A stretch of DNA of 10,551 bases from a virus (lineage: Duplodnaviria; Heunggongvirae; Uroviricota; Caudoviricetes): positions 1 through 10,551 of the IMG/VR virus record IMGVR_UViG_2585427761_000024; one strand, 5' to 3'. Positions 6,001-9,000 of the stretch are shown here, in pieces. Each line of letters begins with the position of its first letter. Position 1 is the first letter of the stretch. Position numbers: made by a program.

Positions 6001-9000
6001 GACTGTTGCTGGGCCTGCACCAGCGTTGTTTCTTAGCCTGCAATGTTCAATTACGTCATTTTCTGTCAGTTCAGATAGTTTGATCGCGGATATGTCACTA
6101 TCCATAAGCAGTTCCAGCACATATCTTTTAGTACGGCCTGCTTTACCTCCGGCATTTGGGTCATTTAAATATTTGTGTAGTAAGTCACGGACTGTAAGTC
6201 CATCAACAGCATTTGATGATGGAATGCCATATAGATCTAATTCCATCACTTTCTGTGCGCCCCATGTTTTGGCATGAGCATGTTTAGGGAATGTTTTGCT
6301 TTCTCTGTAAGTGATAACACCTTTTTCTTTGATAATCACATTACAGCGATAGCGTGGTGTGCCATCGGATTTTAGTCGTTTCTCTATGTTATAGTACGCC
6401 ATTACACGACCTCGTTATTTCGGGTTCCCATAAAACGTGGGAACCTGTGCGGGAACCTAACGCGAGAAAAATAGCCTGAAATGTTCAAAAATGCACGATA
6501 ATCCTGAAACACAGAAAACTAATCAAACCAGCGTGATGCCTGAAAAAACTGGCGCTTACTGGAGTTCTCGGTTTAGCATTGCTCCTATGCTCGACTGGAC
6601 GGACAGACATTGCCGCTATTTCTTGCGTCTGCTTTCCCGCAATACGTTGCTGTATACCGAAATGGTGACCACAGGGGCGATTATTCACGGTAAAGGTGAT
6701 TACCTGGCGTACAGTGAAGAAGAACATCCGGTAGCGTTGCAACTCGGCGGTAGCGATCCGGCGGCGCTGGCACAGTGTGCGAAGCTGGCAGAAGCGCGTG
6801 GATATGATGAGATCAACCTGAATGTCGGCTGCCCGTCTGACCGGGTGCAGAACGGCATGTTTGGTGCGTGTCTGATGGGTAATACGCAGCTGGTTGCCGA
6901 CTGCGTGAAAGCGATGCGCGATGTGGTGTCGATTCCAGTGACGGTGAAAACGCGTATTGGCATCGATGACCAGGACAGCTATGAATTTCTCTGCGATTTC
7001 ATCAACACCGTTTCCGGCAAAGGCGAGTGTGAGATGTTTATCATCCACGCACGTAAAGCCTGGCTTTCGGGGTTAAGTCCGAAAGAAAACCGTGAAATCC
7101 CGCCGCTCGATTATCCGCGTGTGTATCAACTGAAGCGTGACTTTCCGCATCTGACAATGTCGATTAACGGTGGTATCAAGTCGCTGGAAGAGGCCAAAGC
7201 ACACCTGCAACATATGGATGGCGTGATGGTCGGGCGCGAGGCGTATCAGAATCCGGGTATTCTGGCGGCGGTAGACCGGGAGATCTTTGGTTCCTCGGAT
7301 ACCGATGCCGATCCGGTGGCGGTAGTGCGCGCCATGTATCCGTACATTGAGCGTGAACTCAGCCAGGGGACGTATCTCGGCCATATTACCCGGCATATGT
7401 TGGGCTTGTTCCAGGGTATTCCTGGCGCGCGGCAGTGGCGGCGTTATTTAAGTGAAAATGCCCATAAAGCGGGTGCAGACATTAATGTGCTGGAACACGC
7501 GCTCAAACTGGTGGCGGATAAGCGTTAACTTTTCACCAAAAAGTAGTCAAATTCACCACGCCCTGCGCACCGTCGCGGGGCGTTTTGCTGTTAAATCAAT
7601 AGATTATTTTTGGCATGATTCTTGTAATGCCAGCAAGAGATTTCATATTTGGGAGAGCATCATGCTGGAACTACTTTTTGTGATTGGCTTTTTTGTCATG
7701 CTGATGGTCACCGGCGTTTCGTTGCTGGGCATTATCGCCGCGCTGGTTGTGGCGACGGCCATTATGTTCCTCGGCGGTATGCTGGCATTGATGATTAAGT
7801 TGCTGCCGTGGTTACTACTGGCGATTGCGGTGGTGTGGGTTATTAAGGCGATTAAAGCACCAAAAGTGCCTAAATATCAGCGTTATGACCGCTGGCGTTA
7901 CTAAGGGATTGTGCGGATGATCACAACCTAAGGTTTTATCCTTAGAACAAAATAGGAATTGATAATCAAATCTGTCACTATTGCGCCTCTAACAGATTCA
8001 TCGTGCTGTACCCTACATACAGCCGAACTATAAAAAGAAAGGGCTTCCCAGGTGGAAGCCCTATTTCTTTTATGGAATCAGCAGGCTGGAACCTTGCGTC
8101 GCCCGGCTTTCCAGAATCTCATGCGCACGCTGCGCATCCTTCAGCGGATATTTCTGCTGCTCGGCGACATCGACCTTAATCACACCGCTGGCAATCAAAG
8201 AGAACAGTTCATTACTGGCCTCGGTTAATTCCTCCCGCGTGGTGATATAGCCTTGCAGGGAAGGGCGTGTCACATACAACGAGCCTTTTTGATTGAGAAT
8301 GCCTAAGTTCACACCGGTAACCGCACCTGATGAGTTGCCAAAACTGACCATTAAGCCGCGGCGTTGCAGGCAATCCAGCGACCGTTCCCAGGTGTCTCTG
8401 CCCACGGAATCGTACACCACGCGCACTTTCTTACCGCCGGTGATCTCTTTTAACCGCTCGACCAGATTCTCTTCACGATAGTTAATTACCTGCCACGCGC
8501 CCGCTTTTAGCGCGCTCTGCGCTTTTTGCGCGGTTCCTACGGTGCCGATAAGTTTCGCGCCCAGGGCTTTTGCCCACTGGCAGGCAATCAAGCCAACGCC
8601 GCCAGCCGCTGCGTGGAACAGGAACTGTTCATCGGGTTTAATTTCATAGGTTTTACGCAGCAGATAATAAACCGTTAAGCCTTTCAGGAAGGATGCCGCA
8701 GCTTGCTCAAAAGAAATTGCCGCAGGCAGAATCGCCGCTTTATCCGCATTAATGTTATGCACAGAGCTGTAAGCGCCTAACGCCGACTGCGCATAGACAA
8801 CACGATCGCCTGCCTTAATATGCTTTACACCACTGCCGACTTTACTCACGATGCCTGCCGCTTCGGTACCTAATCCGCTGGGTAGTGATGGCGGCGGGGA
8901 AAGGCCGCTGCGGATATATGTGTCGATAAAATTGATGCCGATGGCTTTATTTTCGACCTGGATTTCATTCTCTGCCGGATCGGCAGGAGTGAACTCTACG

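Follow-up and report, generated by a model that had tools for sequence, protein, structure and literature searches.

What becomes of a host gene whose start lies directly against a phage integrase gene, and where does the prophage end and the chromosome begin? The question is raised by a 10,551-nucleotide (nt) stretch of a tailed-phage record (IMG/VR IMGVR_UViG_2585427761_000024, positions 1 to 10,551; the whole stretch is called the window below), in which a tyrosine integrase gene (int) diverges from dusA, the gene of a tRNA-dihydrouridine synthase. A first-pass annotation had proposed dusA-targeted integration with a phage-supplied 5' end of the gene. Such a mechanism does exist and operates in this case, and it has already been documented for what is essentially the same integration module (PMC4482086, PMC6328086). 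We conclude with high confidence that a lambdoid prophage with NleG genes is site-specifically integrated inside the 5' end of dusA and that the window contains its right junction (attR).

The junction inside dusA

The region from int to the end of dusA contains the following features:

5305-6402, minus strand: tyrosine integrase of the dusA-associated integrase (DAI; Rci-like) family, last prophage gene; 365 amino acids (aa); Pfam PF00589 Phage_integrase, E = 1e-20.
6403-6490, no strand: int-dusA intergenic region, 88 bp, divergent; of phage origin, having entered attR with the P arm of attP to which it belongs.
6423-6429 (inverted), 6439-6445 and 6451-6457 (direct), no strand: three copies of GGGAACC; candidate arm-type Int sites or int operator.
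6491-7528, plus strand: dusA; 345 aa; Pfam Dus, E = 1e-104; NCBIfam DusA, E = 2e-174.
6491-6594, plus strand: surrogate dusA 5' end, codons 1 to ~35; phage-supplied and in frame with host dusA.
6536-6538, plus strand: internal in-frame ATG at the position equivalent to the start of ancestral, uninterrupted dusA; probably not the start here.
6587-6594, plus strand: att core ATGCTCGA, codons 33-35; sole stretch identical in attR, attP, attL and attB.
6587-6606, plus strand: extended imperfect att repeat, ATGCTCGACTGGACGGACAG in attR and attB versus ATGCTCGATAGGATGTACCG in attP and attL, 15 of 20 positions identical.
6595-7528, plus strand: host-derived rest of dusA, codons ~36-345; matched in all 5426 complete Escherichia coli genomes.

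The junction was mapped by an in-register comparison of four att sites, namely attR in the window, attP in phage mEp460, attB in E. coli K-12 and attL in E. coli 2015C-4498, which is the closest match to the window among the 5426 complete E. coli genomes (98.7% identity over 91% of the window). To the left of the core, attR and the left arm of the mEp460 attP were 99% identical over 110 nt, while to its right attR was 100% identical to the K-12 attB over 52 nt and 98% identical to that of strain A36. The attL of 2015C-4498 displayed the reciprocal arrangement, with 100% identity to the K-12 attB on the left and 100% identity to the right arm of the mEp460 attP on the right, as the reciprocal product of the window attR. 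At the positions that flank the core (6586 and 6595), attP and attB differ. From this four-way pattern it follows that positions 6403-6594 are of phage origin and that host DNA starts at 6595. The comparison places strand exchange within the core, which lies 97-104 nt into the dusA open reading frame (ORF) and thus in the first 100-200 bp of the gene, where it had been predicted.

Database matches change at the same point. A 600-bp query across the junction found matches in 5426 of 5426 complete E. coli genomes, yet these extended through int in only 742; the remaining genomes started matching at 6488 (93-95% identity) or 6578 (97-98%). Ten independent phage records, mEp460 and nine others, matched from dinI through int up to 6593-6596 and no further, and several prophage-derived phage records were linearised exactly at 6593-6596. 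As the first-pass annotation had anticipated, identity to prophage-free sites stops short of int. For ancestral-type sites such as that of A36, where zur adjoins dusA, it begins at about 6578-6587, and for K-12-type sites it is only 84% from 6488 to the core and 100% thereafter. Because the K-12 dusA 5' end is itself apparently a diverged copy of an element-type leader (see below), the identity test against K-12 could have misled, showing similarity up to the ATG.

This K-12 alignment is also what could suggest that the prophage inserted upstream of a wholly native dusA, in the yjbM-dusA intergenic region, with int merely abutting the gene: in megablast, the match between K-12-type empty sites and the window sets in at 6488, 3 nt ahead of the ATG, and the literature on Shiga toxin-producing E. 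coli sometimes calls the insertion site yjbM (PMC8065619). The K-12 alignment, however, runs at 84% up to the core and then at 100%, whereas mEp460 reaches the core at 99% identity. The attL of 2015C-4498, for its part, retains the K-12 5' end up to the same core. An upstream insertion leaves the sharp switch at 6594/6595 unexplained. The four-way att comparison refutes this reading, which we regard as extremely improbable.

A second dusA-derived repeat at the far end of the prophage had been predicted as well. It was found in 2015C-4498, where it is followed by the right-arm sequence of the mEp460 attP. There, attL is annotated as a 105-bp pseudogene ('tRNA-dihydrouridine synthase, missing C-terminus'). 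It terminates in the shared core, 46.8 kb away from int and beside a PrtN-family gene, and marks the far limit of a prophage of that size. Of the two copies of the imperfect direct repeat, attR is thus seen in the window itself and attL in this proxy genome. The repeat at 6587-6606 corresponds to the ~21-bp semiconserved attachment motif described for DAI elements (PMC4482086).

These data are best explained by site-specific recombination inside the dusA 5' end. The DAI tyrosine integrase recombined the phage attP with the chromosomal attB at ATGCTCGA, and the original dusA promoter and first 32-35 codons were moved ~47 kb off, to the other end of the prophage. There, at attL, the dusA 5' fragment would end in ATGCTCGA and be followed by TAGGATGTACCGTTTTTG from the P' arm of the phage, while the circular attP would carry GCTCCTATGCTCGATAGGATG. 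At attR, the phage arm beside int supplies a substitute in frame, made up of a promoter region, the start codon at 6491 and 32 codons that close with the sequence of the RFSIAPM beta-strand, such that a full-length 345-aa DusA can still be made from the phage-host fusion. Circular excision with restoration of the previous dusA sequence has been shown experimentally for the 95.6%-identical module of phage Phi1720a-02 (PMC6328086) and for three other DAI elements (PMC4482086). For annotation, the prophage boundary belongs at 6594/6595, inside dusA, and not at the stop or start of int.

According to ORF and Pfam analyses, everything to the left of dusA is prophage:

417-1076: Lom/Ail-family gene (ORF listing and Pfam).
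1135-2454: side tail fibre gene with a GC-rich collagen-like stretch inside (ORF listing and Pfam).
2831-3409, 3482-4111 and 4238-4834, plus strand: three NleG-family type III effector genes, prophage cargo; Pfam PF06416, E = 1e-43 to 4e-47.
4995-5243, minus strand: DinI-like gene; Pfam PF06183, E = 2e-18.

Genes for Lom and a side tail fibre, followed by moron genes ahead of int and the att site, are a lambdoid arrangement, and the full prophage map in 2015C-4498 runs from terminase through gpJ and Lom to the tail fibre. The dinI-int-attP module is conserved in mEp460-type phages, being 96% shared with mEp460, SKA5, Lys8385Vzw and others. To the right of the prophage lie the chromosomal genes dusA, pspG, qorA and dnaB. 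The three tandem, U-box-like NleG genes form a block of 31-46% G+C between the tail fibre genes and dinI/int, and are typical moron cargo of prophages in attaching-and-effacing E. coli. Within the tail fibre ORF, the collagen-like Gly-X-Y repeat (~1880-2200) has 66-70% G+C and a strong A-over-T skew, resulting in long spurious ORFs in the other frames. Window positions 1 to ~990, where a tail gene finishes and the greater part of the Lom-like gene lies, fall outside the best E. coli matches; these start at 990-996.

The phage-supplied leader and its start codon

If the first codons of dusA came with the phage, their composition and relatives should differ from those of the rest of the gene. 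The segment 6491-6594 was 99% identical to the mEp460 attP (over 110 nt), compared to 76% for K-12 and 37% for the ancestral type, which upholds the proposed phage origin of the first part of the frame. Its G+C content is 44%, versus 54% for 6595-7528; it resembles that of int (42%) and lies below that of every 104-nt window in the rest of dusA (minimum 46%). The AT-rich start noted earlier is therefore real, though it measures 104 nt rather than the ~130 nt first estimated.

Two in-frame ATGs, at 6491 and 6536, 45 nt apart, had been considered to leave the true start ambiguous; both are present, and a third ATG (6587) lies inside the att core. We compared 19 element-type 5' ends, comprising loci where an Int homologue (64-99% identity) adjoins dusA and relic loci. 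An MH.N.E-type start, equivalent to 6491, stands exactly 32 codons ahead of the core Met in 17 of these 19 leaders, even though the sequence in between has diverged heavily. The Met equivalent to 6536 (Met16) is replaced by Leu, Ile, Thr, Phe or others in most element-supplied leaders. In native dusA (A36, E. albertii, Citrobacter, Enterobacter and others), by contrast with these leaders, the start lies 18 codons ahead of the core Met, follows closely on an in-frame stop and shows the pattern M[PSL].ES...PA[HY]RFSIAPM. The leader comparison thus points to the ATG at 6491, and not that at 6536, as the conserved start of element-supplied leaders and the probable translation start in the window.

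The phage leader encodes the native RFSIAPM strand with other codons; its Ser codon, for instance, is AGC instead of the TCG of native dusA. Retention of this strand despite different codons points to selection at the protein level and so to a chimera that functions, and chimeric DusA is presumably expressed and active. The 88-bp gap at 6403-6490, which has the same layout as, and near-identical sequence to, the mEp460 attP, must hold the int control region and, we infer, probably also the promoter that now drives dusA. In annotation, dusA should here be treated as a phage-host chimera with its start at 6491. The case adds another temperate phage that preserves the gene which its integration interrupts.

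Several points weigh against this interpretation. The window begins inside the prophage, and the attL used belongs to a genome that matches 91% of the window at 98.7% identity; likewise, the ability of this prophage copy to excise is something that we infer. With regard to expression of the chimera, a promoter and terminator scan of 6300-6700 came back empty, with no sigma-70 consensus that passed, and no obvious Shine-Dalgarno sequence was seen at either ATG 6491 or ATG 6536. These last two negatives would fit a prophage that has the junction as described and yet is a fixed, non-mobile remnant, its chimeric dusA being tolerated with little or no expression in view of the non-essentiality of dusA. 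Several phage genes of 2015C-4498 (portal, lysis) are indeed frameshifted, and no phenotype has been reported for dusA loss in Acinetobacter baumannii (PMC4482086). Against a remnant speaks that int is undamaged and shares 98% identity with the integrase of a viable phage, and that the open 32-codon frame and the RFS[IV]APM strand are kept across elements with heavily diverged nucleotides, for which selection on the protein has been argued. Moreover, the same leader persists as the sole dusA 5' end in 79% of E. coli genomes. A fixed remnant with a dispensable chimera therefore strikes us as rather improbable, and we favour a prophage that carries a working replacement leader.

The integrase family and candidate arm-type sites

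DAIs are Rci-like tyrosine recombinases encoded beside the dusA 5' end in more than 200 genomes (Farrugia et al. 2015, PMC4482086). Their islands are flanked by 21-bp semiconserved repeats at attL and attR and supply a new dusA 5' end, the first TIM-barrel beta-strand included; the mEp460 Int is named among the phage DAI matches (PMC4482086). Kinship of the window Int to this family was tested through the mEp460 Int (annotated INT_Rci), to which it is 98% identical at the amino acid level. The window combines a tyrosine recombinase bearing R-H-R-H and a nucleophilic Tyr, an 88-bp gap (6403-6490, exactly the divergent spacing between the int and dusA starts that had been reported for int as the last prophage gene), a junction at codons 33-35 and an in-frame replacement 5' end. 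The catalytic residues R222, H306, R309, H332 and Y342 are invariant among homologues down to 69% identity. Int homologues with 64-99% identity adjoin dusA in Pluralibacter, Kosakonia, Phytobacter, Intestinirhabdus and another Escherichia, and every one of them is accompanied by an extended MH.N.E leader. In scans of viral contigs, the window Int and an Int alignment retrieved only elements with 88-100% identity, while a 69%-identical Int used as query reached the diverged ones.

The three GGGAACC copies in the int-dusA gap are strongly clustered, as three of the five matches in 10.5 kb fall within 35 bp. In mEp460, all five matches in 6.7 kb lie in attP (locus L004, 4018-4052 and 4233-4250), three on this arm and two on the other, the latter 45-62 bp beyond the core. 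Diverged elements retain the layout of one inverted and two direct copies, equally far from the start of int. The heptamer itself varies with the Int clade, reading GGGRRCC, GGTGTAC (L018, L166-L170) or GGTGTCC (L234). Between the two motif classes, the N-terminal 70 aa of Int are 50% identical, compared to 80% for the catalytic domain, and within a class the N-terminal identity is 79-84%. The contigs of the GGTGTAC class are prophage junctions, with the P' arm outside, except for L170 (IMGVR_UViG_2645727648_000003), whose junction mismatches the dusA core. The L170 leader diverges after GCCCCGAT and lacks the ATGCTCGA core; this contig might represent an attP, or else an element inserted somewhere other than dusA.

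Based on their distribution, the GGGAACC repeats are probably arm-type Int sites, and they may also autoregulate int. Alternatively, the triplet might be a repressor operator, or it might fold as RNA into a hairpin within the leader of int or of dusA. The first two copies do form an inverted repeat, GGGTTCCCA N7 TGGGAACC, only ~20 bp from the int start, and in one other locus (L006) both halves change together, to GGGTCCCCA and TGGGGACC. In another (L067), however, the halves change without staying complementary, and the third direct copy together with the two on the other attP arm fits a hairpin poorly. The motif also switches with the Int clade, whose N-terminal domain diverges most. The operator or hairpin explanation is accordingly one that we consider less likely. 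We ranked the hairpin reading of GGGTTCCCA/TGGGAACC below the protein-site reading on account of the broken complementarity in L067 and the further copies on the other attP arm. As candidate arm-type sites, the repeats offer a handle on intasome assembly in this integrase family.

The K-12 leader and known dusA-targeting elements

Is the K-12 dusA then a native gene? The E. coli loci split into two classes. The ancestral class, in which zur adjoins dusA and DusA has 331 aa, accounts for 1123 of the 5426 complete genomes (21%; for example A36 and ST131), and the K-12 type for the other 4303 (79%). The ancestral leader is also present in E. albertii, E. whittamii, Citrobacter, Enterobacter, Klebsiella and others. 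In K-12, 133 bp of the ancestral form are replaced by 1.7 kb with yjbL/yjbM (DUF2713) and an element-type leader, as viewed in the K-12 derivative MFDpir (NZ_CP060708, locus L005, 2965-4666, with yjbL/yjbM between zur and dusA; to be compared with window 6390-6594). The leader of K-12 shares 84% identity with that of the phage over the stretch that opens 3 nt ahead of the ATG and runs to the end of the core; it has the same 32-codon length and an MH.N.E start (the MHGNSE... extension of the 345-aa form). About 80-90 bp upstream, where int would begin, K-12 retains a 12/13-nt match to the int start. A tblastn search with Int detected no significant protein-level remnant in the K-12 yjbM-dusA region, only this 13-nt vestige. 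An ancestral-type dusA 5' remnant was looked for beside zur in K-12 and none was found; this segment has been deleted, and the K-12 locus is therefore a replacement and not a simple insertion.

We consider it likely, from these comparisons, that the promoter region, ATG and first 32 codons of K-12-type dusA are the fossil of an earlier dusA-associated element, and that the prophage in the window represents a second-generation replacement of the leader. Element-type dusA leaders with no integrase within 3 kb upstream were also observed in Kosakonia (L017, L065), Superficieibacter (L036) and Silvania (L068), and in L065 the MH start codon has been lost. These look like independent relics akin to that of K-12. 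If the fossil interpretation is true, a housekeeping tRNA-modification gene has had its N-terminus and promoter repeatedly replaced by temperate elements, with one of these versions becoming fixed in most E. coli. This suggests that the DusA N-terminus and promoter known from work on K-12 derive from a mobile element. As a prophage-free reference for this locus, K-12 therefore misleads, and only B2-like strains (zur beside dusA, 331-aa DusA) show the ancestral attB. No statement of this interpretation was found in the searchable literature or in the supplements of PMC4482086, although it may still have been reported; MG1655 and K-12 are absent from the supplementary tables of that paper.

Among known systems, the DAI elements of PMC4482086 share with the window an Rci-related tyrosine recombinase, an int gene that diverges from and abuts the dusA 5' end, a replacement 5' end with the beta-1 strand and a PrtN-family gene (here in 2015C-4498 and mEp460); with attL taken from 2015C-4498, the ~21-bp semiconserved att repeats are probably shared as well. 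Nothing essential differs, but that study leaves the arm-type repeats, the conserved 32-codon leader and the K-12-type fossil undescribed. The SGI1-related islands of Vibrio also target dusA and likewise restore its 5' end; in contrast to the prophage in the window, they are mobilisable islands rather than phages and have distant integrases (PMC8409611). Much closer is Phi1720a-02 (Phi-stx2dact, KF030445), which is 95.6% identical to the window at the nucleotide level from int to the core, even though it carries stx2d instead of NleG cargo and was studied in another host species. This phage was mapped experimentally to 100 bp into dusA of Citrobacter rodentium, with a 7-base core inside GCTCCCATGCTCGACTGGA, an in-frame 'Phi-dusA'' ORF fusion and a circular attP that was detected in vivo (PMC6328086). 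The window site matches this C. rodentium attB (GCTCCCATGCTCGACTGGA) at 18 of 19 positions. Finally, mEp460 (JQ182728/NC_019716), the source of the attP used here, shares the dinI-int-attP module at 96.3% nucleotide identity; unlike the prophage in the window, it comes from a free phage, retains the two arms of attP and has no NleG genes in the region examined between the tail fibre gene and dinI. The insertion into dusA with a replacement start is therefore already known for phages that are 96-98% identical. What the present analysis adds, and what we regard as modestly interesting, is the choice of start codon, a set of candidate arm sites whose motif changes along with the Int clade, and the probable fossil leader in most E. 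coli.

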